Shown: positions 1 through 14,994, counted from the first letter of the stretch. The stretch: DNA of 64,000 nucleotides from Promethearchaeota archaeon Loki_b31 (GCA_005222975.1 NJBI01000003.1:1-64000), one strand, 5' to 3'. Numbers and translations are program-made. Notes: generated from the letters alone by a model not told the origin.

Positions 1-1
1 C

Positions 2-547
2 TATTTCTGGGGCGATGACGATAACATGACAAAATATAAAGCTGCCTATTTTGACTACTATAAAGACGTAGGAAAAATGGTTTGGAGACATGGCGATTAT
101 ATAGTAATTCATAGCGATACAGGTGGTATTACCTTCTGGGGTCGATCGGACGCAGTTTTAAAACCTTCTGGAGTACGAATTGGTACTGCAGAAATCTATA
201 ATGTTGTAGAACAATTACCTGAGATCGCTGATAGTCTTGTTATAGGTCAGAAGTACTCCGGAGATATCCGAATAATAATGTTCGTTCTCTTGAATGAGGG
301 CTACGAATTAACGGACGATTTAAAAGCCAAGATTAGTACAACATTGCGTGAAAAGACATCGCCAAGACATGTGCCTAAGCTAATCTTTGCTGCTCCCCCA
401 GATGGCATACCTTACACTTTCAGCAATAAGAAAGTCGAAATTGCCGTGACTAAAATCATCCATGGCATGGAAGTGGCCAACCGAAGCGCACTTAGAAACC
501 CAGAATCCTTAGATTTCTACATGGAAATGAAGGATAAACTACAGTAG
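2..547 (+). CDS. Acetoacetate-CoA ligase (acetoacetyl-CoA synthetase), C-terminal part; 5' end lies outside the window
   Basis: Frame open from position 2 (YFWGDDDN...). Motifs WRHGD, GRSDAVLKPSGVRIGTAEIY, SPRHVP, NKKVEIAV and NPESL are typical of acetoacetyl-CoA synthetases. Confidence 0.9.
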   Translation, partial: YFWGDDDNMTKYKAAYFDYYKDVGKMVWRHGDYIVIHSDTGGITFWGRSDAVLKPSGVRIGTAEIYNVVEQLPEIADSLVIGQKYSGDIRIIMFVLLNEGYELTDDLKAKISTTLREKTSPRHVPKLIFAAPPDGIPYTFSNKKVEIAVTKIIHGMEVANRSALRNPESLDFYMEMKDKLQ

Positions 548-585
548 ATATTTAAAAATTATTTCCAATTTTTTTCTAAATATTC

Positions 586-2499
586 TTATTTATAATCTGT
601 TACATACCAAAATCTTCTTGGATATCTAGTTTTTAAAAAAGGAATAAGATTCTTTCTTAAAAATGTATACTTAAAAGGAATTTGAATATCCTTTCCCGCG
701 AAAACTTGAATTATATAATAAGGAGAAATGGGTTCTTGAATTTTTGGATCTGATCTTCTAATAATCTCCCGTAAAACGATAATAAGATATTTAGCATATT
801 TCATAAAAGCAGTTCTATACCTTAATAATAGAAGGATATCATAAGGCATTAGTTTAGTTATTTCTTTAATTAAATTTAAAATAATCTCATCATCATTTAG
901 AAGAATACTGTTTAAGATTGATTCATAAGTAAATTCGCAAATAAAATATAGTAACTGATTGGAAATATTATATATCTCATCAATATCTCTTTTAAGCTTA
1001 ATTTGCGTATAAGAATCTTCAGTTAAAGCCATTCCTATTAAATAATTAGTCATTTCTTCACTGATGGAAAATCCATAATTATTTAAATGCTCGTTTAGTT
1101 CAATACTACCCAAAATTTGTGACTCTCTCCTTTTTAGAACTTGATTATACTCTAATTCTAACCATTGTTTAATTAATAAAGTATTTCTCCTAGAATAACT
1201 AAATCTTAACTTTCCTTCTTTCAATTTAAAATTCTTAATTCTTTGTTCTACTTTTTCATTTATCTCTACAGGCGCTACTTCTTTTAAGATTTTACATGCT
1301 AGCCATATTCTTCTAAGCGGTTCCTTAAACTTTTCAGGTTTAACTATATCGAGGAATTTTTTTACGCTTTTAACTTCCGTAATATTTACTTGACGACTTT
1401 TGGAAGAGTAAGTTGAGTTTATTCCTAATAAATGGCACATATTGTGGAAATCGTGTAATAAAGTATCTGAATAATTTTCAAAATTTAAAGTAATTCTCTT
1501 GTCGAGATTTACAGTTATCCCTCCATCTGTATCAAAAAGTCCTTTTAAACCTCTTCTAATAAAGGAATAATTCTTTAATACAAAATCAGGAACCCCTACT
1601 TGATGATCAACTTTATTTCCGGGAATTAGACCATTTTTATTATCTCTAATCCTTTTACCTTTTTCAACAATACTAAAATGAATGGATTTTCTCCTTAAAA
1701 TTAATTGTAGAGTATTTTCATCTTTAATGTGTTGTAAGTGTAATTCATCTTCAGTTAGATTAAATATTGAACATACAGTTGTTTTGACATATTCAGTATA
1801 TCTTTCTTCATCAATGGGGTTTAATGAAACTATAACCGTTTGACCATTTTCGCTTAAATGACCATCTCCACACATTGTACAAATAAATTCAGCAAGATCC
1901 TCATTTTCTTCAAGTGGGATATATTCAAATTGACCTATCATCTTTTTATGAGGAATTAGATCATCTTCAAAATGAGTTATCAAATTTTCTTTATATGATG
2001 TATATTTTTTATAAAATTCAAGAAGTGATTGCTTTGAAAAGTTATCTAAAAATAAAGCTTTGAATTTATTAAAAATGTTAATTGATAACCGATATCCTTT
2101 ATAGAGGACTCTCTGATATACATCTTCGGATATTCCAATTAATTCACTAATTTTTCTCCGAGTAAATATTCTATCTTTAATTTTTAATTCTTTAACAATT
2201 TCTTTCAAATATTCTGTATTTATAATAATCCTTATGTTGGGTGGTTTATATTCCACAATATAACGTTCAAAAAGTTGTCCTTTATTAGTTTTAATTGAGT
2301 TATCACAATATTCTATATTGTTTAAATTATCATTATTGTTATCTAAATGTTCAATATCTTCATTAATATAATGGACATTAGTTCTTATGCCAAAACGGGG
2401 AAGATTATCATTATTAGAACATTTTCTTTTAGTCTTGGGATTTTTATAACAACGTAAATCATTTTTTTTTCCTTTAGATTTATTTGTATTTTTAACCAT
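586..2499 (-). CDS. Free-standing LAGLIDADG (DOD-type) homing-endonuclease-domain protein with an N-terminal HTH
   Basis: Two LAGLIDADG-like helices, LAEFICTMCGDGHL and LKGLFDTDGGI, about 110 aa apart. HTH-like segment RRKISELIGISEDVYQRV. No intein splice motifs seen. Confidence 0.8.
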   Translation of the reverse strand: MVKNTNKSKGKKNDLRCYKNPKTKRKCSNNDNLPRFGIRTNVHYINEDIEHLDNNNDNLNNIEYCDNSIKTNKGQLFERYIVEYKPPNIRIIINTEYLKEIVKELKIKDRIFTRRKISELIGISEDVYQRVLYKGYRLSINIFNKFKALFLDNFSKQSLLEFYKKYTSYKENLITHFEDDLIPHKKMIGQFEYIPLEENEDLAEFICTMCGDGHLSENGQTVIVSLNPIDEERYTEYVKTTVCSIFNLTEDELHLQHIKDENTLQLILRRKSIHFSIVEKGKRIRDNKNGLIPGNKVDHQVGVPDFVLKNYSFIRRGLKGLFDTDGGITVNLDKRITLNFENYSDTLLHDFHNMCHLLGINSTYSSKSRQVNITEVKSVKKFLDIVKPEKFKEPLRRIWLACKILKEVAPVEINEKVEQRIKNFKLKEGKLRFSYSRRNTLLIKQWLELEYNQVLKRRESQILGSIELNEHLNNYGFSISEEMTNYLIGMALTEDSYTQIKLKRDIDEIYNISNQLLYFICEFTYESILNSILLNDDEIILNLIKEITKLMPYDILLLLRYRTAFMKYAKYLIIVLREIIRRSDPKIQEPISPYYIIQVFAGKDIQIPFKYTFLRKNLIPFLKTRYPRRFWYVTDYK

Positions 2500-2677
2500 G
2501 ACTGAAATCTCAAAAAATTCTTAATTATTCTTTTAAATTGCAATATGTAACACGAATATGTTTTTATCTTTATAAATCTTAATAGAGTAGGGATTTTGTC
2601 TTTATATATAATATAGAATTCTATGTATTAATTAAAAAATTCAAGAAATTTAAAAATAAAATTAGATTCGTCTTAAA

Positions 2678-3568
2678 TTATTGCTTTAAATATCCTATTG
2701 TTTCTTGTATTCTCTTTTTTAACTTCTCTTTTAACTCTTTAATGCTTTTGTATATAATAAAATTAAAATCTTTAACATCAAAATGGATATCTGATATTGA
2801 ATTAACAATATGTATTACATCTTTATTTAGACCATGAGCAATTCCTAACTCATAATAACAGTTTGGACGTGCTTCTGTAAGATCAGAAATAATAAATCGA
2901 GCTTTTTTTATATTATCAATAATTTTTTCTGTTATATGCCCATTAAATTCCTGTTCATCGACTCTCTCGCAAGTATAGCCAAGAAGTGAAACAATAGGTT
3001 TGATCACATTTTTATATGAATTTTGGAGTATAAGATTTTCGGAATATGACATTATCACAAAACAAAAGCTATCGTCAACCTTATTGTTCTTTGGAATTTC
3101 AATCTTCTGATTATAATTAATTATTTTAAAACCATCTTTAAATTTGAGGTTTCCTCTAATATTTTCAAAAATCCCCGCAAATTTACCCCAATTAAGGATA
3201 GTCCATAAAATTGTGCCATTCTTTAAATTAATCTTATAGATAGATTTTATAAAATTAATTGCCTCTGTATTTGTATATTCATTATTTATTAATTCAATGA
3301 AATCACTAAATGGTTTATATTCTAATAATTTGGATCGAAAAATTGAAATTTTTTTTTCTTGAGAAGCGTAATAGATGTCTTCTGAAAGTTCAAATAATCC
3401 TAGTTGTTTTGCCGCACCTATAGCTTTTCTTGAAGATTCCTCAGAAAGATTTAAAGAAGAAGAGAGAAGTTTTTTATTGAATAAAATATTTGATTCTTCA
3501 CATTTTTTAGAAAATTCTACAGCTTTTACAATAATTTTTGCACTAACATTATAAATCTGAAATTTCAT
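2678..3568 (-). CDS. Winged-helix (AAA_assoc_C-like) module fused to a C-terminal nucleoside 2-deoxyribosyltransferase/TIR-like domain
   Basis: C-terminal CFVIMSY...IKKARFIISDLTEARPNCYYELGIAHGLNK is the NDT-like signature. N-terminal KKISIFRSKLLEYKPF...ILNWGKFAGIF resembles PF09821. Confidence 0.75.
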   Translation of the reverse strand: MKFQIYNVSAKIIVKAVEFSKKCEESNILFNKKLLSSSLNLSEESSRKAIGAAKQLGLFELSEDIYYASQEKKISIFRSKLLEYKPFSDFIELINNEYTNTEAINFIKSIYKINLKNGTILWTILNWGKFAGIFENIRGNLKFKDGFKIINYNQKIEIPKNNKVDDSFCFVIMSYSENLILQNSYKNVIKPIVSLLGYTCERVDEQEFNGHITEKIIDNIKKARFIISDLTEARPNCYYELGIAHGLNKDVIHIVNSISDIHFDVKDFNFIIYKSIKELKEKLKKRIQETIGYLKQ

Positions 3569-4938
3569 AAATCAAAACCCAATTTTCTTTCTAATAACTT
3601 TATATCGGAGAAGAATAACCGATTATCTTTAATCTCTTTATATAATTGCAGATGATCTTTAATTAAAATATTAAAATCTTTCAGATATTCATATTTTTCA
3701 CATAACTGGATTAGTTCTTTAACTGCATTAATAGTTTTTTCAAAATCTCCTTTACTACTTGATGTAATGATTCCAATTTGTTTTCCAAGCCTAAAATAAC
3801 CAATATTGGCTTTTTTTAACTGGAAGCCATTTGAAGAGTTCTCTTGAATTTTAACAGTGTTTTTGTTATCTTCAATCTCGTAAAAATGTGCTTTTTCTTC
3901 TGAATTCAAGATTCCTTCTTTACTTAATTCGGACTTGAGCATAGTTTCCTTTTTTGAAAAGTTATTAACTTTTATAACTCGGTATTTTCCTTTACTAATT
4001 GTTTCAATTAAGTTAGCTTCTCTTAGCCAACTCATGAATTTTTTACCGTATGTTTTTATAGTTAATTCAGACGACCATTTACCACCAATATATCTATTTA
4101 AAAAATTACCTAAATCAAGAGTTGTAATTTCCTTTTCTTGTAGTTTTATTATAAGTTCTCTATATTCGCTCTCAAAAAGAGTTTGTCTCCAGATTTCAGG
4201 TATATGCTCTCTATTAAAGGACTCTACTAACCTATATCCTTTTTCTGTAATATAATATTGTTTTGGTGCTATTTTTTCTATTAATCCAAGTTCAATACAC
4301 ACACCTATTTCGGTAGATACCCTTTTTCCTAAATCGTTTATGAGAGTTGACAAATCAACTTCTTTAATTTTAGATATATATTCTACAATTTTAAAAATCG
4401 TATTAAAAGAACAAGAGGGTAAAACCGGTTTTTTCTTCAATTTAATTTTTTGCCCATTTAATCTTAAAATACCTCTTGAATAGATACCATCGCCAACATA
4501 ACTTAAAATACTTGCGGTTGCAGAGCCATACGCCTTAAATGTTAAGGGATTATCCCATCTTTTACTAAATTTAAAAGCAAGCTGCTTACCAATCTCCTCA
4601 GATGTTAATATATTTTTAGTTATCAATAAATTAGAAACAAATTTGAATGGCTCTTTCTCTTCTATTCCAGATTTAATTAGTTTACCTGCCAAGTCATCAT
4701 CATTTGTGATAATAGCTATTCTAAACTTAAGCCCTAAGTCAGAAAGTTTAAGCGTTTTTAATTTTTTGTCATAATCTACCAATTCTAATAATTGCAAAAC
4801 GGGTAATAAATTAGATATTTTACTTTTTCCAAATAAATCATATATATCATCTAATTCACACACATCTTCTTGTGGAAATTTTTTAATAAAATCCTTTATT
4901 AAACCAATTCGAACATATGGGAGAGTTATATTTTTCAT
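3565..4938 (-). CDS. Protein with two tandem winged-helix (AAA_assoc_C-like) modules
   Basis: Internal repeat (LP...LELV..LKLSDLG...W..PLTFKAYG and LP...LGLI..YYITEKG...W..ELTIKTYG). Overlaps the downstream gene by 4 bp (ATGA). Confidence 0.6.
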   Translation of the reverse strand: MKNITLPYVRIGLIKDFIKKFPQEDVCELDDIYDLFGKSKISNLLPVLQLLELVDYDKKLKTLKLSDLGLKFRIAIITNDDDLAGKLIKSGIEEKEPFKFVSNLLITKNILTSEEIGKQLAFKFSKRWDNPLTFKAYGSATASILSYVGDGIYSRGILRLNGQKIKLKKKPVLPSCSFNTIFKIVEYISKIKEVDLSTLINDLGKRVSTEIGVCIELGLIEKIAPKQYYITEKGYRLVESFNREHIPEIWRQTLFESEYRELIIKLQEKEITTLDLGNFLNRYIGGKWSSELTIKTYGKKFMSWLREANLIETISKGKYRVIKVNNFSKKETMLKSELSKEGILNSEEKAHFYEIEDNKNTVKIQENSSNGFQLKKANIGYFRLGKQIGIITSSSKGDFEKTINAVKELIQLCEKYEYLKDFNILIKDHLQLYKEIKDNRLFFSDIKLLERKLGFDL

Positions 4939-5597
4939 TTTAAACTATTATTCATTTTATTTAATCATATAAAGAAAATGATTTTATTTAAATTTGATTA
5001 TTAAGAGATTATTAGAATGAGAATTTAAACTGAAAGAATTCTTTTAAATCCTTATATTATATTTGATGATATTCAACTATTTAAATATTATTTATAAGTG
5101 GTTGTCGAAATGAAATTTAACCAAAAAAACTTTAAATTATTTAAAAAAGATCTGAAAAAAATAAGGTTATATTAAAATAAAAGTATAAAATGTTCAATAA
5201 ATTACTAATCTTTTAACCTCCATAGAATTAAAAAATGATTGTTAATGTGAAAATGGTAATAATTACAGAAAAAATTATAACTATATGTGAAATTCTATTT
5301 GCGATAAAAATTATTACTTTACCTAATGAAATATTCAATTCATGGTATATTTATGATATATATTGTAGCATCAAGAAATCCTAAATCGCTAAATTTATGT
5401 AATAAATATTGATGAAAAAATTCAATCATATTTCATTGGATCAATTTAAATAAATAACATAGGACATATATTTAATAAAGAATTATATTAGAATAATAAA
5501 GATAAAAATTTACTTAGATGTAAAAATTTTATTATTATATTTCAATAGATTTAATTATCTACAAATTGAATGATTAATATTTTCATAGGTTATAAAA

Positions 5598-7292
5598 ATG
5601 CTTGAAAGATTATTTGTAAGACCAAAAAGAAAATCTAGAAAGTTTTTATTTGGATTAAATAATTTTAAATCTTTTAAAGAAAACCAACTGATTGAAATCA
5701 AACCATTAACAATAATATGTGGGGTAAACAATTGTGGTAAAAGCTCGATTATCCAAAGTCTTCTACTATCTTCCCAAAGTTTGGAATTAACGGAAAAATT
5801 TAGGGGATATCCTCTATTAATAAGATATCCATATGACTTTCGAGAGCCAATTTATAAAACATCCTTATTATTTGAAGGGGATTTATGCCATCTTAGTGAT
5901 TTTTATAATGTATTAAATAGATATTCAAAAGATAAAGAATTTTCATTTAATTTTGAAATAGAAAGTACTAAATTTTCAGTTACTTTCTTTAATCCATATA
6001 AAGAAAATCCATTAGAAGCTTATGTTAAAAATATTGATATAATTGGGGATGGATATAATTTACAAATTGAATCCAAATTTGAAGAAAATAACGATAAATT
6101 TAATTATTCATGTCTAATAAAAAAACTAAATTTTCAACATTTATTATGGCGATGTCCTTTTGGATATTTTAAAAGCAGAAAGTATCTATCAAATAAAAAT
6201 TTTGAAGAAACTTTCATAATAAATCATTTAATAAAGGATATTAAAGTTATATTTAATGGTTTCTTACCAGAAAAGCTTCTTCTTCCTTATGATAGATTTT
6301 CTAATGAAATAAACCTCATTATCCAAAGATTTGGTGAAGGTCTAAAGGAATTAAAGTCTTTTAAAAAAAGAATTAATGAGGAGTTAGAATTTATATTACT
6401 GAGAACTGAAGGTAAAACTAAGGATTATGGAAGAAAGATAATAAAAGAAACATATTATTCCTTTTTTGAATATTATGAAAATAAAATATTCGAAGATTTA
6501 TTAAAGAAATTTCACTATATTGGACCTTTAAGGGATGAACCACATAGATATTATCAATTTTATGATATCAGAAATTTAGATATAGGTAACAAAGGACAAT
6601 ATGCTGCTCAGATTTTAACTTTAGAGGGTGATTTACAGATTCCCACCTTTAAAACCTTTGAAATTAAAGATGGAAAATTAATCTTTGAGAAAGTTAAATT
6701 AAAAGATTTATCTTTAAAAAAGGGATTGTCAATATGGTTTAAAAAATTAAATCTTCCATCAATAAATCCTAAAAAGTTAGAACATATCTTATTTAAAATA
6801 GTTGTAAATTTACAAAAAAGCGATGAATATGTTACACTTCAAGATGTGGGTTTTGGGATAAGTCAAATTTTACCCGTATATGTTGAAAGTTTAAGAATGG
6901 AAAAGGGACATACATTAGTTTTAGAACAACCCGAAATTCACCTCCATCCAAGTATGCAATCTAAACTAGCAGATTTTTTAATTTCAATGGCAATTTCTGG
7001 AAAAAATTTTCTTATTGAAACTCATAGTGAACATTTAATTAACAGAATTTGCCTTAGAATAGCTCAAGATCACTCAAATACAATAAAAAATATTATCTCG
7101 CTTGTATTTGTTGAACCTCCAAAAGAAGATAAAACAGGGAAATTCATTGGTTCAAAAATAAAGAGAATTATTTTAAATAATTATGGAGAAATTGAAAATT
7201 GGCCAGTAGGTTTTTTTGATGATTTAGATAGCGGTAAAATAATACAAGCAGCGATTAAAAAAAGAAAAAAAGAAGCTAATGGTGAAATATAA
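5598..7292 (+). CDS. AAA_15/AAA_21 ABC-type ATPase with C-terminal DUF3696
   Basis: Walker A GVNNCGKS, signature DVGFGISQILP, Walker B LVLEQPEIHLHP, H-loop ETHSEH, and C-terminal YGEIENWPVGFFD. Confidence 0.88.
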   Translation: MLERLFVRPKRKSRKFLFGLNNFKSFKENQLIEIKPLTIICGVNNCGKSSIIQSLLLSSQSLELTEKFRGYPLLIRYPYDFREPIYKTSLLFEGDLCHLSDFYNVLNRYSKDKEFSFNFEIESTKFSVTFFNPYKENPLEAYVKNIDIIGDGYNLQIESKFEENNDKFNYSCLIKKLNFQHLLWRCPFGYFKSRKYLSNKNFEETFIINHLIKDIKVIFNGFLPEKLLLPYDRFSNEINLIIQRFGEGLKELKSFKKRINEELEFILLRTEGKTKDYGRKIIKETYYSFFEYYENKIFEDLLKKFHYIGPLRDEPHRYYQFYDIRNLDIGNKGQYAAQILTLEGDLQIPTFKTFEIKDGKLIFEKVKLKDLSLKKGLSIWFKKLNLPSINPKKLEHILFKIVVNLQKSDEYVTLQDVGFGISQILPVYVESLRMEKGHTLVLEQPEIHLHPSMQSKLADFLISMAISGKNFLIETHSEHLINRICLRIAQDHSNTIKNIISLVFVEPPKEDKTGKFIGSKIKRIILNNYGEIENWPVGFFDDLDSGKIIQAAIKKRKKEANGEI

Positions 7293-8158
7293 TAATAAAT
7301 TGTTATATTGATCCTATCTTTCTATCGGTAAAAAAATCTGTGACATTAAAACATTATTCAGAAGTTATATTCCTTGAATTAAATGAATTTTTTATTAGAG
7401 TTAAAGAATTAGAGAAAGAATACGGTGATAAATTTATAGAAATTAATATTAATCAAGAGTTTTTGATGAATTGTATGCAATATAATCCTTTTTGTTTCGA
7501 GGGGAATTACTCTATTTGTAAACGATTTAAAGAATTTATTTTTTTGATTTTAAGAAAATACCGAAATTCAAAATGCGAAAAAACAACAAATGAACAAATT
7601 ATTCCTTTTAAATATGAATATGAAAATGAATATGTCCCGTTAACTATAATGAATACTTGGAATCAATTTATAAATAGATGTTTGTTATGTGTAAATAAAC
7701 AAAATAGAAATCTTGAATTATTAACATGTGATGAGATTGGATCAAATAAAAAGGAAGATGTTCCTGAATATTTTAATAGAGTTATTGTTAATCTAATCGA
7801 TTGGTTAAATAATGTATATGGATTTATTAATATTTCAACTGAACCTGAGAGGATCAATGTTGATCTAAAGTCGAAAATGAAAGGAAATTGGGCTCACTCA
7901 AAAACTAAAGGTGTTATGAGTGTAATTAATAAATTATTGAATAGTAATTATATTAAAGAAATTTATCCAATAGAAAAATCGAGAAAAGTAAATGAAAATA
8001 GGTTAGAAATAGTAAATTTCAATCAATTAAAGATATATATTAAAGATAAGATTGGAACTCAATTATTTATAATTAATACTACAGCTAAGAATGAAATTGA
8101 AAGTATTAAAATTATGGAAAATATGCTTAAAATTATACCTACCTTTAAGGTTAAATAA
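7292..8158 (+). CDS. Hypothetical partner of the ATPase with a C-terminal DUF2103-like domain; start uncertain (ATA near 7292 or GTG at 7340)
   Basis: Frame open from 7286, just after a GGTGA RBS at 7281-7285. C-terminal AHSKTKGVMSVINKL...IKEIYP...GTQLFIINTTAKNEIE resembles DUF2103. Confidence 0.6.
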   Translation: MINCYIDPIFLSVKKSVTLKHYSEVIFLELNEFFIRVKELEKEYGDKFIEININQEFLMNCMQYNPFCFEGNYSICKRFKEFIFLILRKYRNSKCEKTTNEQIIPFKYEYENEYVPLTIMNTWNQFINRCLLCVNKQNRNLELLTCDEIGSNKKEDVPEYFNRVIVNLIDWLNNVYGFINISTEPERINVDLKSKMKGNWAHSKTKGVMSVINKLLNSNYIKEIYPIEKSRKVNENRLEIVNFNQLKIYIKDKIGTQLFIINTTAKNEIESIKIMENMLKIIPTFKVK

Positions 8159-8231
8159 TCTCTGTTATCCAAGATTCTTTAAAAATCGACAAACTTTTCA
8201 TTTCCATATCGAAATTAATTATCCTAGAAAT

Positions 8232-8819
8232 TTAAGGTCCTTTTAGATAAGTATCTAAAAAACCTATATATGCTTCAAATTGACCTGGTTCCAAATTAAA
8301 ATTGCTATCAGAAAAATAAATAACTTGATCAATAAAATTACCAACTTTTTTCACTATTGTTGCTGGATTTAAGATTCTCTTATATCCAACTAAAGCTGTT
8401 GGGATATTTTTAATTATCTTTACACTTTCAAGATTAATTTTAGCGTTTTCTACATTACGTGTTGACAAAACCGATTTTACTTGAATTACTGCTTTTACAG
8501 AGTCAGGAGTAGTAATTATTAAATTATTCTTTAAAAATAATGGAAATGATGAAGTACCATCAACTATAATTATATCAAGTTCTTTTGAAACCTTTTCAAC
8601 TTCTTTTGTAGGTGTCAATTTAACGATTAGTCCGGTATAGATTTCAAATTTAGGTGGTATATAATTTCGAGTCACCTCTCTTATGATATCTTCATAGAAA
8701 TCACCAAGAACTTTTGAAGCCACATCTGAAGGATTGCCTGTTAAGTTTCTTAATGTTTGCTGCATTTGCAATAACTCTTTTTGGATTCCATCATAAACAT
8801 TCATAATTATTTTTATCAA
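8232..8819 (-). CDS. DUF6602-type PD-(D/E)XK restriction-endonuclease-like protein
   Basis: GDFYEDIIR...P..FEIYTGLIV...SKELDIIIVD...PLF...PDSVKAVIQVKS. Confidence 0.75.
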   Translation of the reverse strand: MIKIIMNVYDGIQKELLQMQQTLRNLTGNPSDVASKVLGDFYEDIIREVTRNYIPPKFEIYTGLIVKLTPTKEVEKVSKELDIIIVDGTSSFPLFLKNNLIITTPDSVKAVIQVKSVLSTRNVENAKINLESVKIIKNIPTALVGYKRILNPATIVKKVGNFIDQVIYFSDSNFNLEPGQFEAYIGFLDTYLKGP

Positions 8820-8892
8820 ACTAATTATTTAAAGGGCTAATATTTATTTATAATATAAACAGATGAAGGAAGAACTTCAAAAAATATAAAAT

Positions 8893-9272
8893 TCATTCAT
8901 TTAACTTTATAACAATTTTCCTTGCCTCTAATATCCCCCATTGAGTTAACTTTAATCCCCTTTCATTCTCATGAACAAGATTTCTTTTTTTTTAAATTAT
9001 TCACATATGTTGATATATATCCCTTATTTTTAGGTTTTAATATTTTGAAGATTTTATCTTTTGAAATTCGACTTTCATTATAATTATCTAATAATACAAA
9101 CAAGATCTTATTCGAGAACGACATATTTGAATCCTTGAATATTATCTCTCCATTTTCAAATCGTTCAACTCTCTTATAATATTCAAATGAGATTGTTTCT
9201 AAAAAATTAATAGTCTGCTCATCAAGTGACTTTTAATAAAAGTTTTTCGAGTTTGATTAAATAAATGCTCAC
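8893..9272 (-). pseudogene. Truncated, frameshifted remnant of a gene with a C-terminal winged helix
   Basis: Reads LDEQTINFLETISFEYYKRVERFENG...ISTYVNNLKK, then after a frameshift in a 9-nt homopolymer (8985-8993) RNLVHENERGLKLTQWGILEARKIVIKLNE*. A second frameshift lies near 9232, and the 5' part is cut at the island boundary. Confidence 0.6.
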
Positions 9273-9278
9273 AATTAT

Positions 9279-9311
9279 CCGATAATTAACCGATGATTAA
9301 CCGATGAATTA
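9279..9311 (+). repeat. 3 x 11-bp tandem micro-repeat at the island right junction
   Basis: CCGATAATTAA CCGATGATTAA CCGATGAATTA. Confidence 0.8.
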
Positions 9312-9536
9312 CAAGCAAAAATAAGCCAAACTTTACGAGAAAAAACCTCCCCAAGACATATACCAAAATTAATCTTTCAAGCACCCGAAGATGGTATTCC
9401 TTATACTTTCAGCAACAAAAAAGTCGAAATTGCCGTGACAAAGATTATTCACGGTATGGAAGTGGCCAATCGAAGCGCATTAAGGAATCCCACCTCTTTA
9501 GATTACTATATGGAAATGAAAGATAAGTTAAATTAA
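9297..9536 (+). pseudogene. Orphan 3' end (79 codons plus stop) of acetoacetate-CoA ligase; diverged direct repeat of 308-547
   Basis: LTDELQAKISQTLREKTSPRHIPKLIF...MEMKDKLN*. 70/79 aa identical to the first gene, no indels, no start codon. Confidence 0.92.
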
Positions 9537-9620
9537 AACAATAAATTTTTTTTATTATATTATTATTCTTTATAATTTAGATTAAAGAAAATCCATCATC
9601 TTCATTCATACAATTAATCT

Positions 9621-11282
9621 TTAATTATTATAGACATCTTTAAATTGTATTCTAATTACCTTCTTATCTAACTTACCTACGCTGGTCCTAGGGATAGAGT
9701 CCACAAATATGATCTTGTTTGGTATTTGCCATTTAGCAAAATTTTTGGTGAGATATTGACGAAGCTCTTCTTCAGTAATTGATTTAAAGTCTTCCCGTAG
9801 AACAACCAAAGCTAAAGGTCTTTCCTCCCATTTTGGATGTGGTAATCCTACTACGGCAGCTTCAAGTACACCTTTATGAGTCATTAATGTATTTTCCATA
9901 TCAATTGAACTAATCCATTCTCCACCGCTTTTAATCACATCTTTAATTCTATCTGTTATCTTTAGATATCCTTCAGAATCAATACAACCAGCATCACCAG
10001 TTCTAAAAAATCCATCTGGTGTAAAACTATCCTTTGTTCGATCTGAGTTATAATAACACCTGGTAATCCAAGGACTACGTAAAAGCACTTCTCCAGAAGA
10101 TTTCCCATCACTAGGAAGCTCATTACCCCTTTCATCTACTATTTTAATGTCTATACCTGAATTAATGGTACCTTGCTTTTTCTTAAGTTCCCAAAGATCC
10201 TCTTCAGAAAGTTCTTTTTTAAGCCAGGGTTTGAAATAATTTAGGGTGACAATTGCTAACCCTTCTGTAGAACCATAAGTATGTACAATTTCTCCACCAG
10301 TTTCATCCCAGAAACCTCGCATTAGAGTTATTGTAGGTTCAGATCCTCCGCAGAGGAAACGAGCACCGGTTAAATCTGGTTTTTCATCCATTTTTCGGAT
10401 TATTTCATGCATTGCCATCAAAACGGTTGGCACTGCAGCTGATATAGTTACTTTTTCTTTATCCATCAGATTAGTAAGTTCTTTTAGATCTTGTAAGCTC
10501 CACTTGCCCGAGAAAATTAATTTAGCCCCAGCATATGCTGAAGCTTGAGGTATCGACCAACCAAGGACATGGAACATGGGAACCATTTGAAAAACAACAT
10601 CATTCACTGATATAGAGAATTTAGCAGTAAACATTAAAGCATGAATATATACTTCTCGGTGAGAGTAATATACTCCTTTTGGTTTTCCAGTAGTACCTGT
10701 TGTATAACACGCTGCATATGAAGAATCTTCATCTAAGTAAGGCCATTCATATTTCGGTGAGGCATTATTCACAAGTTCTTCATAGCTATAAATTGGGTTA
10801 AGATCAGCTCTTATATCACTTAAATCCTTTTCAGTAATAATTATGTACCCTTTTATTTCCTTGCATAAAGCAGCTACAGATTCAGCTACACTAATCAGAT
10901 CTTCATCAACAATGATATATTTTGCACCAGAATGATTTATTACATAAGATAATTCCTCAGGAATAAGGTTTAGATTCAAAGAAACCATAACAGCCCCCAT
11001 TCCAGGAAGACCATAATAAATCTCAAAATGCTGATGATGATTCCATGCAATAACTCCAACTCTATCACCAACTTTTATACCAATAGAGTCTAACGCATTT
11101 GCTAATCTTTGCATTCTTTCATACGAATCCTTATAGGTATACTGAAATAAGGTATCATCACTTTTTCTTGTAATGATTTCTTGTTTCGCGAAATTTCTTA
11201 TACCCTGCCGCATATGGTTTATAACATTAAGCTGGTAATTCTTTTCTTGCTCAACCATAAAACCCTTAACAATCTTCCTCAT
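9621..11282 (-). CDS. Long/medium-chain fatty acid-CoA ligase (AlkK/DmdB-like)
   Basis: YTTGTTGKPKG, YGSTE, FRTGD, DRIKDVIKSGGEWISS, PKWEERP. Confidence 0.92.
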   Translation of the reverse strand: MRKIVKGFMVEQEKNYQLNVINHMRQGIRNFAKQEIITRKSDDTLFQYTYKDSYERMQRLANALDSIGIKVGDRVGVIAWNHHQHFEIYYGLPGMGAVMVSLNLNLIPEELSYVINHSGAKYIIVDEDLISVAESVAALCKEIKGYIIITEKDLSDIRADLNPIYSYEELVNNASPKYEWPYLDEDSSYAACYTTGTTGKPKGVYYSHREVYIHALMFTAKFSISVNDVVFQMVPMFHVLGWSIPQASAYAGAKLIFSGKWSLQDLKELTNLMDKEKVTISAAVPTVLMAMHEIIRKMDEKPDLTGARFLCGGSEPTITLMRGFWDETGGEIVHTYGSTEGLAIVTLNYFKPWLKKELSEEDLWELKKKQGTINSGIDIKIVDERGNELPSDGKSSGEVLLRSPWITRCYYNSDRTKDSFTPDGFFRTGDAGCIDSEGYLKITDRIKDVIKSGGEWISSIDMENTLMTHKGVLEAAVVGLPHPKWEERPLALVVLREDFKSITEEELRQYLTKNFAKWQIPNKIIFVDSIPRTSVGKLDKKVIRIQFKDVYNN

Positions 11283-11465: not shown

Positions 11466-11660
11466 ATGACTTTAAAACCTATCAAAGAAGAAATAATTAA
11501 TCTTATACAAGAGTTACCTGATGATGCAACATTGGAGGATATTCAATATCATTTATTTGTAAAACAAAAGCTCTTAAGAGCTGAGGAACAAATAAAAGAA
11601 GGAAAAACTATTTCCCATGAAGAAGTCATGGAAAAGGCTAGGACGAAATGGTTCAAATAG
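11466..11660 (+). CDS. Antitoxin (addiction-module type)
   Basis: 64 aa, LPDDATLEDIQYHL...GKTISHEEV. Overlaps the downstream toxin. Confidence 0.8.
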   Translation: MTLKPIKEEIINLIQELPDDATLEDIQYHLFVKQKLLRAEEQIKEGKTISHEEVMEKARTKWFK

Positions 11661-11938
11661 AATGGTCTGAAGAATCTGAAGAAGATTTAAACGATATACT
11701 TTCGTATCTTTCAAAAAGCTCCTCTCAATATGCCAACTCTTTTTTTGAACGCGTTCATGAAGTTGTAGAATATATTAAACAATTTCCTAAAATGGGTCGA
11801 AAAGTTCCGGAATCTAAGAATCCAAGCGATAGGGAATTAGTTATTCAAAAATATAGACTAATTTATAGGTTTTTAGAGGAAGAGAATAGAATACTAATTA
11901 TGATGATAATTCATGGAAGTAGAGTATTGAAATTATAA
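11648..11938 (+). CDS. RelE/ParE family toxin
   Basis: IEWSEESEEDL...FPKMGRKVPE...RELVIQKYRLIYR...IIHGSR. Confidence 0.9.
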   Translation: MVQIEWSEESEEDLNDILSYLSKSSSQYANSFFERVHEVVEYIKQFPKMGRKVPESKNPSDRELVIQKYRLIYRFLEEENRILIMMIIHGSRVLKL

Positions 11939-12083
11939 GAACGACATTCTCTACATTCTCTTACATCAAAGAGGAACTTATATAGTTTTAAAACTTATTT
12001 TTTTACAATTTTTAAATTCTATTTTGTCTAATAATTCAATTATTTAAAAAGAATTAATAAAAAAATACATTATATAATATGCT

Positions 12084-12932
12084 ATGGAAGATAAAAGAAA
12101 AATAATCTCTGAAGGCGACGTTGTTAAATTTACAAAACACCCTAACACTATAACTTCCTTAAAACGCGATTTTAAAACGCTCGGTGTTGAAAAAGGTTCT
12201 GTTATTATAATGCATAGTTCGCTGAGTAAAATTGGTTGGACTGTTGGAGGGCCAGTATCCGTAGTTAAAGCGCTAACACAAGTTTTAACTCCAGAAGGTA
12301 CATTGGTAATGCCGACATTTACCAGTGGCAATTCCGAACCATCTCAATGGGAAAACCCTCCAGTACCTAAAAGTTGGTGGGGTATAATAAGAAAAGAGCT
12401 GCCCGCCTTCGAAGCTAAAATAACTCCTACTAGAGCAATGGGACGTATTGTAGAAACTTTTAGGAATTGGCCTAAAGTCTTTCGGAGTAATCATCCTAAT
12501 GTATCGTTCACTGCTTGGGGTAAGCAAGCAAAGTTTATTACCGAAAATCACGAATTAGAAGCAGAATTGGGCGAGAATTCTCCAACTTCCCGCCTTTACG
12601 ATCTTAACGGACAAATATTATTAGTGGGAGTAAACCACGAGAATAACTCTTCGTTGCATCTTGCTGAATATCGAAGCGGTTTCCCTAGAAGAAAGTATAT
12701 TCGAAATGGATGTGCGATGATGGTGAATAATCAGAGACAGTGGGTAGAATGGGAAGGTCTAGATTATGATAGCGATGATTTTGAGCTACTTGGAAAGAAT
12801 TATGAATCTAAAATCAATTTTAAACCAGGTAAAATTGGTCTGGCTGAAGCTCGATTGATTTCACTTCGAGATATAGTAGATTTTGGAGTAGATTGGTTAA
12901 CGGAAAAAAGAATAAAAAAGATATTAAGATAA
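12084..12932 (+). CDS. Aminoglycoside N3-acetyltransferase family protein (AAC(3)/YokD)
   Basis: MHSSLSKIGWTVGG, GTLVMPTFT, RSNHP, NSSLHLAE. Confidence 0.9.
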   Translation: MEDKRKIISEGDVVKFTKHPNTITSLKRDFKTLGVEKGSVIIMHSSLSKIGWTVGGPVSVVKALTQVLTPEGTLVMPTFTSGNSEPSQWENPPVPKSWWGIIRKELPAFEAKITPTRAMGRIVETFRNWPKVFRSNHPNVSFTAWGKQAKFITENHELEAELGENSPTSRLYDLNGQILLVGVNHENNSSLHLAEYRSGFPRRKYIRNGCAMMVNNQRQWVEWEGLDYDSDDFELLGKNYESKINFKPGKIGLAEARLISLRDIVDFGVDWLTEKRIKKILR

Positions 12933-12992
12933 ATATATTTTACCTTACATTATAAATTCTATAAAAAAAGAAAAAAATGAGGTCGTGTAAAA

Positions 12993-13550
12993 ATGAAAAA
13001 AGTTCTAATCGTTTATGGAACAAGATATGGAAGTACTGAAGAAGTTTCAAATAAGTTAGTGGATATTTTAAAAGAAAAAGGGATTGATACTTCTGCTATA
13101 AATTTTAAAGATTTAATAACTGAAAATCAACCCAATTTAGAGGAATACGATGGAATCATAATCGGTTCAGGTATAAAAGTAGGTCAATGGACAAAAGAAA
13201 CAAAAAAATTCATAGAAAATAATTTAGAATTTTTCAAAAATTCTAAGGTAGTTTTAGGTGTTTTTGTAAGCTCCGGTCTGGCAAGCAGTCCTGAAAAAAT
13301 AACTGAATTAAAAAAGGAATACATAGAGGATGTATTAAATCAATATGGAATAACAGCTGACTTATACGATCTGTTTGGAGGAGTTCTAGATTTATCTAAA
13401 GATTCAAATATTGGATTTTTGGGAAAAAAAATGGTAAAGATGGTTAGTAAAGAAGATCCTAGAATTAAACCTAACCAAAGAAATGATCTGAGAGACTGGA
13501 ATCAAATAAAGCAATTTACTGAAAACTACGCAAATTTATTGAAGAATTAA
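12993..13550 (+). CDS. Flavodoxin-domain protein (Flavodoxin_5/HemG-like)
   Basis: IVYGTRYGSTEE, FGG and DLRDWNQI motifs. Confidence 0.85.
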   Translation: MKKVLIVYGTRYGSTEEVSNKLVDILKEKGIDTSAINFKDLITENQPNLEEYDGIIIGSGIKVGQWTKETKKFIENNLEFFKNSKVVLGVFVSSGLASSPEKITELKKEYIEDVLNQYGITADLYDLFGGVLDLSKDSNIGFLGKKMVKMVSKEDPRIKPNQRNDLRDWNQIKQFTENYANLLKN

Positions 13551-13630
13551 ATCTTTTTTTTACTTTTTATTTAAATCACTAACATTATCAAAACCAGAAC
13601 ATTAAGTTTTAATAATTAAATATTATCGAA

Positions 13631-14515
13631 TTGAGGAACACCAGTGATATGACAAATCTTAGATCCAGCGAAGAAACAATTAATGAACATGATGTCTTCT
13701 CAAAAGTAACACTTGTCTATATGTCCCCTAATGGGAGTACTAGAAAATGTGCAGAATTAATTGCTGAACAAATAAAGGGAGAAGGGGAAGTTTTACTTAT
13801 TGACCTAGCAAGGATCGATTCCAGTGAATTGGAATCAATTATCTCTGAAACAACGTTACTCGGCGTTGGATCTCCTACATATCATCTGAACATGTTAGAT
13901 CCCGTAAAAATATTTCTGGAAGGAATCCCTAACATTCCCATTAATAAAAGCCAAGGGCGATGTTCTTTCTGTTTTACTACTTATGGACATGTAAACTCTG
14001 GAAAAACACTTATAAATATGGCTAAGATACTTCACAAGAAACATTACGCAGTATTGGGAGCTCTCAAACTTAGAGCAAAACATTTTTATCAAAAATCAAT
14101 TATGTTTCCCAATTCTGAAGATCAAGACCTGATATTGAAGTTTTGTGAAACCATTAAATATAGAATTACTAATCCTATTGAGTGGAGAAAATTATCAAAA
14201 ATGTTGAACTATCAATATCTGAAAGTTAAGTTAATATATCCAATTATTCAGATCTTTGGAAGTAGTTTCCGAGTGCCAAAATTCAACTTCAATAAGGATC
14301 TCTGCACTTCTTGTGGTTTGTGTGAGGAGAACTGCCCAACACACGTAATCATTATATCTGAATTACCTAAGAAACAGAAAGGATGTATTTACTGTTTCAA
14401 TTGTGTGATGTTTTGTCCAACAGGCGCAATCTATTCAGATCTTGATAAGGTCAAACGAATCTTAAAATTTGACGCAAAGGTATTACATGAAGAATCAATC
14501 AGAGAGATTATCTAA
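13631..14515 (+). CDS. EFR1-type flavodoxin-ferredoxin fusion
   Basis: N-terminal YMSPNGST flavodoxin loop and two CxxCxxCxxxCP motifs. Confidence 0.85.
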   Translation: MRNTSDMTNLRSSEETINEHDVFSKVTLVYMSPNGSTRKCAELIAEQIKGEGEVLLIDLARIDSSELESIISETTLLGVGSPTYHLNMLDPVKIFLEGIPNIPINKSQGRCSFCFTTYGHVNSGKTLINMAKILHKKHYAVLGALKLRAKHFYQKSIMFPNSEDQDLILKFCETIKYRITNPIEWRKLSKMLNYQYLKVKLIYPIIQIFGSSFRVPKFNFNKDLCTSCGLCEENCPTHVIIISELPKKQKGCIYCFNCVMFCPTGAIYSDLDKVKRILKFDAKVLHEESIREII

Positions 14516-14709
14516 GGTTGAAACAATATACAATTAAAAAAAATAATTAATAATCTCAAAATCAACAGTTTTATATTAAAATTATTTAAAAAAAAAGATA
14601 AGGTTAGATAACAATCGCAAAAAGAGAGTTTTTTACTTTTATACTAATTATTATTTACTACTTATATTATTAAATTATTACTTTGTTAGATTTATACTAC
14701 TTCTTTAAA

Positions 14710-14994
14710 TTAATAGCGATTTCGTCTACCGCCGCCGCCACCCCTATTGTATGAACCAAACTGAGGGGGTGCTTTCTCGGTTACTACAACGTTTGAAGCC
14801 TGCGGACCTTTCTGGCCCTCTGTTACATCAAACTCAACCTTATCGTTTTCGTTTAACGTCAAATATTCATCCTCTCCACCAGATAATGCGGTGTAATGAA
14901 CGAACACATCGTTACCTTCTTCAGAGTTTATAAATCCAAAGCCTTTTCGGCTATTAAACCATTTTACTGTTCCTTTTACCACTTTTAAAACCAA
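14710..14994 (-). CDS. Cold-shock domain protein with a Gly/Arg-rich C-terminal tail
   Basis: GTVKWFN..KGFGFI (RNP1), VFVHY (RNP2), tail [11 protein letters not shown]. Confidence 0.93.

Follow-up and report, generated by a model that had tools for sequence, protein, structure and literature searches.

Many genomic islands lack an integrase, and most of these are unexplained. The first 64 kb of contig C78 in the metagenome-assembled genome (MAG) of the Promethearchaeota archaeon Loki_b31 (GCA_005222975.1, NJBI01000003.1:1-64000; 64,000 nucleotides, hereafter the window) pose the question in a concrete form: how did an island that carries no integrase come to lie between two copies of the 3' end of a single host gene, aacS, which encodes acetoacetate-CoA ligase? 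The MAG comprises 3.5 Mb, with a guanine-plus-cytosine (GC) content of 31.5%, a completeness of 92% and a contamination of 6%, and the homologues of the proteins encoded in the window come from Promethearchaeota (Loki-type Asgard archaea). We propose that the feature is probably a free-standing homing-endonuclease cassette resembling the mORFs of fungal mitochondria and joined to the host by homology on its left side but not on its right. The constant core of the cassette is a foreign, synonymously recoded last third of aacS together with a convergent gene for a LAGLIDADG endonuclease, and the locus thereby offers a concrete, testable route to an island of this kind.

The anatomy of the locus is plain. 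Contig C78 begins within aacS, and the 5' part of the gene (residues 5-573) is held by contig C83, of which positions 1-279 match window positions 1-279 with 97.5% identity (7 mismatches in 279 nt); both sequences are of the same allele type (termed A-type here), and the mismatches point to strain heterogeneity, with co-assembled strain variants at aacS. The open aacS frame of the window (2-547) is closed by its last 241 nt (copy A, 307-547), which recur 8.7 kb downstream at 9296-9536 (copy B) as an orphan frame of 79 codons without an upstream gene body; the span reported by the repeat finder is slightly longer (307-575 versus 9296-9564). By BLAST the copies are 78% identical over 231 nt (E = 1e-47). 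Aligned codon by codon (308-547 versus 9297-9536; 80 codons including the stop), they differ at 56 bases (76.7% identity) with neither indels nor internal stops, and 38 of the codon differences are synonymous and 9 non-synonymous, which bears out the identity of about 77% and the hand count of about 37 and 9 given in a preliminary description of this DNA. The synonymous divergence (dS) between the copies is saturated by the Nei-Gojobori method (NG86), and their longest identical run is an internal stretch of 20 nt (431-450). The GC content is 41% in aacS and 18-29% in the island.

Which of the two gene ends is the native one was decided by comparison with 42 genomes of the genus, 30 of which gave a full-length aacS match (nucleotide numbers in gene segments start at the first codon in the window, so that the window position is nt + 1). 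Segment-wise pairwise identities were used for the comparison of alleles instead of a tree of the 3' ends, which was uninformative because the mosaic alleles of G021 and G017 draw copy A towards them. From nt 1 to 245 the attached gene is 98.0%, 96.7% and 94.7% identical to the genes of the nearest relatives G017, G009 and G005, respectively; from nt 246 to 305 the identity falls to 76.7%, 71.7% and 68.3%, and from nt 306 to 543, the part corresponding to copy A, it is only 83.6%, 78.6% and 77.3% (77-84%). Copy B, over the same nt 306-543, is 91.6% identical to both G009 and G005 and 89.5% to G017, values about equal to those of the flanking DNA, and together with the 84-bp spacer downstream it matches G017 at 90% over 339 nt. 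Its dS to G009 is 0.30, within the species-level range, and its non-synonymous divergence (dN) of 0.044 is somewhat raised compared with the 0.016 between G009 and G005; the dS of copy A to G009 exceeds 2. Because copy B matches the close relatives and copy A is saturated in dS, copy B is the displaced native end and copy A is foreign.

G017 also provides the empty site: there the aacS stop codon is followed by 88 bp and then by the same convergent gene for a fatty-acid-CoA ligase that borders the island in the window. The proposals of the preliminary description that the two ends evolved in separate lineages and that incoming DNA displaced the resident end are thus upheld, and the empty site that it suggested looking for in relatives exists. 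Truncation of one of two full-length tandem ligase paralogues, which it named as a competing outcome, was looked for and is ruled out: each genome has one aacS and a 32%-identical paralogue elsewhere. Its placement of the island start is right for the repeat, but the foreign tract begins about 55 nt earlier, near window position 247-250. This offset relative to the start of the orphan means that homology spans the left junction but not the right one. A native copy B, a foreign copy A and an empty site in G017 are what a cassette that swaps the gene end would leave behind, and they are the first ground for our reading.

The gene at the left junction is the second. It lies convergent to aacS, 38 bp from its stop codon, as a separate open reading frame (ORF) on the opposite strand that is neither in phase nor co-transcribed with aacS. 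Both LAGLIDADG motifs of its product, M.GDGHL (with D212) and LKGLFDTDG (with D325), are invariant in 14 homologues down to 30% identity. In the AlphaFold2 model (predicted local distance difference test, pLDDT, of 81) a central domain is flanked on both sides by helical domains, and the best Foldseek matches of the central domain are the monomeric archaeal and organellar enzymes I-Tsp061I, I-DmoI, I-SceI and PI-PfuI; WhiA, a LAGLIDADG regulator that does not cut DNA, is also among the fold matches. The ratio dN/dS among three orthologues is 0.32-0.41, indicating purifying selection. Invariant motifs, fold and selection together identify a LAGLIDADG endonuclease at the junction, which argues for a homing cassette.

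Other, independent contigs (L150, L151 and L152) carry members of this endonuclease lineage at the very same aacS site, and the genomes G052 and G020 hold remnants of it there. On the metagenome contig L150, the 5' part of aacS, copy A, an endonuclease gene (92% amino acid identity) and the genes for a TIR-like and a winged-helix-like protein follow each other as in the window, with 96.8% identity to window positions 1-5267; then comes a different right half without an orphan, and then the same ligase gene, so the right half of the island is exchangeable. Between this genome (G000) and L150 the element is about 99% identical and the host 5' part of the gene 96-96.7%, which also speaks for a cassette. 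Contig L151 carries a complete 664-amino-acid (aa) aacS (89.5% identical) and a convergent endonuclease gene (64.5%); beyond these lie a gene for an HNH_5 protein, an orphaned piece of aacS and katG, in this order. Its foreign tract and its orphan both start at nt ~250, which makes L151 a clean insertion of a cassette made up of gene end, endonuclease gene and cargo. That L150 and L151 share one geometry of aacS and endonuclease gene is a further argument for the cassette.

In G052 and G020, C-terminal remnants of the endonuclease (up to 70% identity) stand directly after the aacS stop codon, and the aacS genes of these two genomes, which are 78.8% identical before nt 245, are 96.7-98.3% identical after it; remnants and shared gene ends fit the spread of a cassette through this site. 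All five alleles with an endonuclease gene or a remnant of one have Ser at the K-(W/Y)-E-G-D codons around nt ~250, where endonuclease-free alleles mostly have Glu, and a replacement at the very position of the proposed target site is again in line with homing.

The architecture also recurs at a second gene. On two contigs of other Promethearchaeota MAGs (L069:7020-11455 and L070:7239-11304), a glycerol-3-phosphate dehydrogenase gene is followed by a convergent gene for a paralogous endonuclease and then, without cargo, by an orphan that repeats the dehydrogenase's last ~40 codons. These endonucleases share 74% identity with one another and, over the aligned cores, 33-38% with the enzyme of the window. 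The native-type end of the dehydrogenase (…LWISHK…KKTVSFI) is found in endonuclease-free relatives and in both orphans. The ends attached to the gene depart from this type (…LWIAPSFVLES…KKTFEFLL), and the conserved RRTEMSLWI motif immediately precedes the junction. A foreign end is attached and the native end orphaned at this gene as well, which supports the same explanation for aacS. Dehydrogenase cassette and orphan together were found only in G058 and G059 among 41 genomes searched; a stray dehydrogenase end fragment in G080 has no endonuclease gene within 3 kb. These cases came from a targeted search for duplicated ends of neighbouring genes, as a tblastx comparison of 80 endonuclease loci with themselves gave mostly noise from summed statistics. 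The targeted search returned a third locus, L071:5241-10376, in which the endonuclease gene stands directly upstream of an ERCC4 nuclease gene whose first 48 codons are duplicated 2.6 kb further upstream (54% identity); it may represent a 5'-end version of the same design.

From the positions of the junctions and the types of alleles, the following course of events can be proposed. The endonuclease would cut an endonuclease-free aacS near window positions 247-262, at the GQK-(W/Y)-E-G-D codons that directly follow the conserved LPEIADSLVIGQ motif. Of the two ends so produced, the left one would invade a cassette-bearing allele and copy from it the recoded end of aacS together with the endonuclease gene and any DNA that follows, so that the cassette would enter by a homologous crossover near position 250 and be joined on the right without homology. 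After this, aacS would be whole again without splicing, and its recoded end would no longer contain the target site. The native 3' end would stay downstream as an orphan, which in later rounds could act as a right homology arm; in this genome the orphan has lost its first ~55 nt. A stronger version, in which the orphan is the right homology arm of the element and not debris, and the cargo is copied into endonuclease-free aacS by double-strand-break repair, is put forward only tentatively, and we hold it to be somewhat doubtful. If it were true, defence islands of Asgard archaea would have a vehicle that is driven by homing and needs no integrase, on the same design as the mORFs.

The absence of an integrase is itself part of the evidence for homing. 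Searches of the island with Pfam, NCBIfam and PHROGs detected neither an integrase nor another recombinase, and the Pfam search of its proteins gave no serine recombinase domain, in agreement with the preliminary description; PF00589 has no match on any aacS contig of the 42 genomes, in which the mostly single Xer-like copy per genome and the few extra copies are all on other contigs. Certain integrase elements leave a similar footprint: e14 and phage 21 in icd, and ICESt1 and the cis-mobilizable elements (CIMEs) in fda, carry diverged replacement 3' ends and have the native end beyond the element. These depend on a tyrosine recombinase and on a short attachment (att) core that is identical at both borders. 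A site-specific integrative element with a replacement gene end, left as a CIME-like immobile island after the loss of its integrase, would account for this classic footprint and for a cargo that is typical of islands. Beyond the missing tyrosine and serine recombinases, it is contradicted by the borders, which are offset by ~55 nt (in this genome, foreign tract and orphan start at different points of the gene) and share no identical short core, by orphan ends that differ among genomes, and by the endonuclease gene, which takes the usual position of the integrase gene beside the reconstituted gene; we regard this origin as very unlikely. The preliminary description had set aside an att pair on the ground that the repeat is too diverged; no att core was indeed found, but divergence is not decisive alone, as the ends of e14 and phage 21 are diverged too.

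A less specific process, homology-facilitated illegitimate recombination, is known from naturally transformable bacteria (Acinetobacter, Streptococcus pneumoniae) and combines one homologous anchor with one non-homologous junction. Foreign DNA would have been anchored in the aacS homology and joined illegitimately at its right end inside the aacS of the recipient, at a variable hot spot, and the LAGLIDADG gene would be a passenger or encode a defence or regulatory protein. The two junctions, homologous on the left (within aacS) and non-homologous on the right (with the ~55-nt offset), agree with this, as do the strongly mosaic alleles with downstream neighbours that vary by species, the several genomes with orphans but no endonuclease gene, and the presence of WhiA among the fold matches. 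At the right junction the 11-nt word ATTAACCGATG is present twice in tandem exactly at the border of island and orphan (9285-9306), an arrangement that is neither simple microhomology nor a flanking target-site duplication. Illegitimate recombination is, however, tied to no gene or enzyme, and it leaves unexplained why one endonuclease lineage (64-92% identity) occupies the same position and orientation at aacS, with remnants in two further species, why a paralogous endonuclease shows the same layout at a second gene, and why both junctions of L151 fall at nt ~250; a WhiA-like role is at odds with the catalytic Asp, which is invariant here and absent from WhiA. We consider it unlikely. A chimeric MAG contig, joining the aacS ends of two strains around unrelated DNA, is suggested by the 6% contamination, by a contig that starts inside aacS and by a second contig that overlaps it at 97.5%. 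Since the independent contig L150 spans the 5' part of aacS, copy A and the endonuclease, TIR-like and winged-helix-like genes at 96.8%, L151 holds gene, cassette and orphan on one contig, and orphans lie downstream of aacS in at least seven other assemblies, such an artefact is extremely improbable. Of the two mechanisms offered in the preliminary description, homology-anchored capture with an illegitimate junction or endonuclease-driven insertion, the data favour a combination, linked to the endonuclease and homologous on the left side only.

Several observations weigh against a homing cassette. The target site is one that we infer, and cleavage by the endonuclease is predicted. The 3' region of aacS is mosaic across the genus, and plain recombination is clearly active there. 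The left ends of the orphans vary among genomes (nt 250, 300, 305, 380, 400, 407, 412 and 448), and in five or six genomes (G009, G011, G051, G057, G049 and G054) an orphan is present with neither an endonuclease gene nor a Ser-type allele; these orphans are either decayed cassettes or products of another recombination process at the hot spot. Flanking gene-end duplicates were found at only three or four of the 76 loci of the endonuclease family. The cargo differs among L150, L151 and the window, and its co-transfer is only inferred. The right junction is supported by a single MAG contig, and the contig break lies inside aacS.

In other genomes the region shows further variants. The G051 orphan (C100, locus L054) is a 250-nt aacS end that lies ~200 bp after the stop codon of the intact gene with no gene in between, and it is either a cassette that has lost its endonuclease gene or a replacement of the gene end alone. 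In the nearest relative, G021 (C155, locus L034), the aacS end switches at about nt 480 from A-type to B-type sequence, the latter extending past the stop codon by 13 nt; there is no island, and a further ~4 kb of downstream genes are deleted. This hybrid end looks like the result of island loss by recombination between A and B. Among eight other species, the genes that directly follow aacS are unrelated ones, mostly metabolic, with no homing-type endonuclease.

The closest match in design is found among the mORFs of fungal mitochondria, and this likeness is a last reason for preferring a homing cassette. In Glomus, elements in atp6, atp9, cox2 and nad3 bring in a foreign C-terminus with an endonuclease ORF and displace the native C-terminus (PMC3630166); the first mORF was described from atp6 of Allomyces macrogynus, where cleavage was shown biochemically (Paquin et al. 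1994, as reported in PMC3630166), and others are present in cob and atp6 of Endoconidiophora (PMC6279837), in atp9 of Rhizopus and in cox2 of Mortierella. As here, a conserved gene has received, close to its end, an endonuclease gene (LAGLIDADG or GIY-YIG) and a foreign coding sequence for its C-terminus; the displaced native sequence downstream matches close relatives, the inserted copy is diverged, and element-free relatives exist. The differences are that the host is an archaeal chromosome and not an organelle; that the endonuclease gene is convergent and separate instead of fused in frame with the host gene, with which it is in phase or co-transcribed in Allomyces and in Glomus atp6; that the protein has 637 aa, with extra N- and C-terminal helical domains; that the endonuclease gene is separated from the orphan by ~6 kb of cargo, most of which matches defence-type families; and that cleavage, shown biochemically for Allomyces, is a prediction here.

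On the prokaryote side, the nearest analogue is the intronless homing of phages, in which free-standing endonucleases of T4 such as SegB, SegF, SegG and MobE take part (PMC2988022, PMC2330249, PMC2790892). There too, a free-standing endonuclease gene lies beside its presumed target gene, flanking markers are co-converted and the carrier allele differs at the target site. Unlike at aacS, the outcome is a clean replacement between two homologous flanks that leaves no orphan, the setting is phage co-infection, and the enzymes are of the GIY-YIG or HNH type instead of LAGLIDADG. In the literature searched, no description of a gene-end-swapping endonuclease design in archaea was found.

With a recoded gene end, a homing endonuclease can do without an intron or intein, and it may carry cargo. 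The occurrence of this design on Promethearchaeota chromosomes, in two or more host genes, widens the range of homing strategies, and at aacS the cassette provides a mechanism for the mosaic 3' ends seen across the genus. The large LAGLIDADG enzymes involved form a family that is probably site-specific, with natural targets that can be predicted.

The features between and around the two gene ends are listed below.

Table. Coordinates of aacS, the island and its right border in the window.
Feature	Position	Strand	Evidence or remark
aacS, 3' part, acetoacetate-CoA ligase, 181 codons	2..547	+	NCBIfam NF002937/TIGR01217, E = 2e-63
Foreign (A-type) aacS tract; repeated part is copy A, 307-547	247..547	+	identity drop versus G017/G009
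Free-standing double-motif LAGLIDADG homing endonuclease, 637 aa	586..2499	-	PF14528
TIR / nucleoside-deoxyribosyltransferase-like effector, 296 aa	2678..3568	-	PADLOC TIR effector E = 8e-15; weak PF05014
Winged-helix-like protein, 457 aa, overlaps TIR-like gene	3565..4938	-	weak winged-helix matches
AT-rich spacer, GC about 18%	4939..5597	.	L150 synteny stops at 5267
AAA_15/DUF3696 ATPase, NsnB/AriA-like, 564 aa	5598..7292	+	Pfam E = 1.6e-23; PADLOC NsnB E = 1.5e-66
ATPase partner protein, 272 aa	7340..8158	+	no Pfam match; weak PADLOC CARF7--CARF_DUF2103 (PDLC01930) E = 1.6e-4
DUF6602 PD-DExK / NucC-like nuclease, 195 aa	8232..8819	-	PF20247 E = 1.6e-16; PADLOC PD_DExK, NucC
Non-coding right-junction region	8820..9295	.	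last 11 nt (9285-9295) repeat the first 11 nt of the orphan (9296-9306)
Orphan copy B, displaced native aacS 3' end, 79 codons + stop	9296..9536	+	91.6% to G009/G005, 89.5% to G017
Fatty-acid-CoA ligase, 553 aa, conserved right flank	9621..11282	-	NF004837; 96% aa identity to G017 aacS neighbour

The six genes between copies A and B are the endonuclease gene and five cargo genes, all five located between the endonuclease gene and the orphan and four of them with matches to defence-type families; the winged-helix-like protein is taken as the partner of the TIR-like effector, as the 272-aa protein is of the ATPase. The winged-helix-like, TIR-like and endonuclease genes are conserved together on L150. 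No similar DNA was found for the right-junction region (8820-9300) and the spacer in the genome or, beyond L150, in the compared loci. In place of window positions 5268-9616, L150 (116-7229) has a block that encodes a 313-aa protein, an AAA_21/AAA_15 ATPase, a 629-aa protein, small ORFs and one ORF of 273 aa with an opening sequence that resembles an alpha/beta hydrolase.

Within the endonuclease gene, the identity to L150 is 98-100% except for a patch at window positions 1652-1951 (residues ~183-282), where it is 75-85%. The patch covers the first LAGLIDADG half-domain and the DNA-contact sheet, and L150 resembles the L151 lineage there; it may be a swapped recognition module.

On the right flank, beyond the fatty-acid-CoA ligase gene, a conserved series of genes (11648-14994) encodes a ParE toxin, a member of the aminoglycoside 3-N-acetyltransferase family, flavodoxin and ferredoxin-domain proteins and a cold-shock protein; many species of the genus carry one to three genes for the last of these close to aacS.

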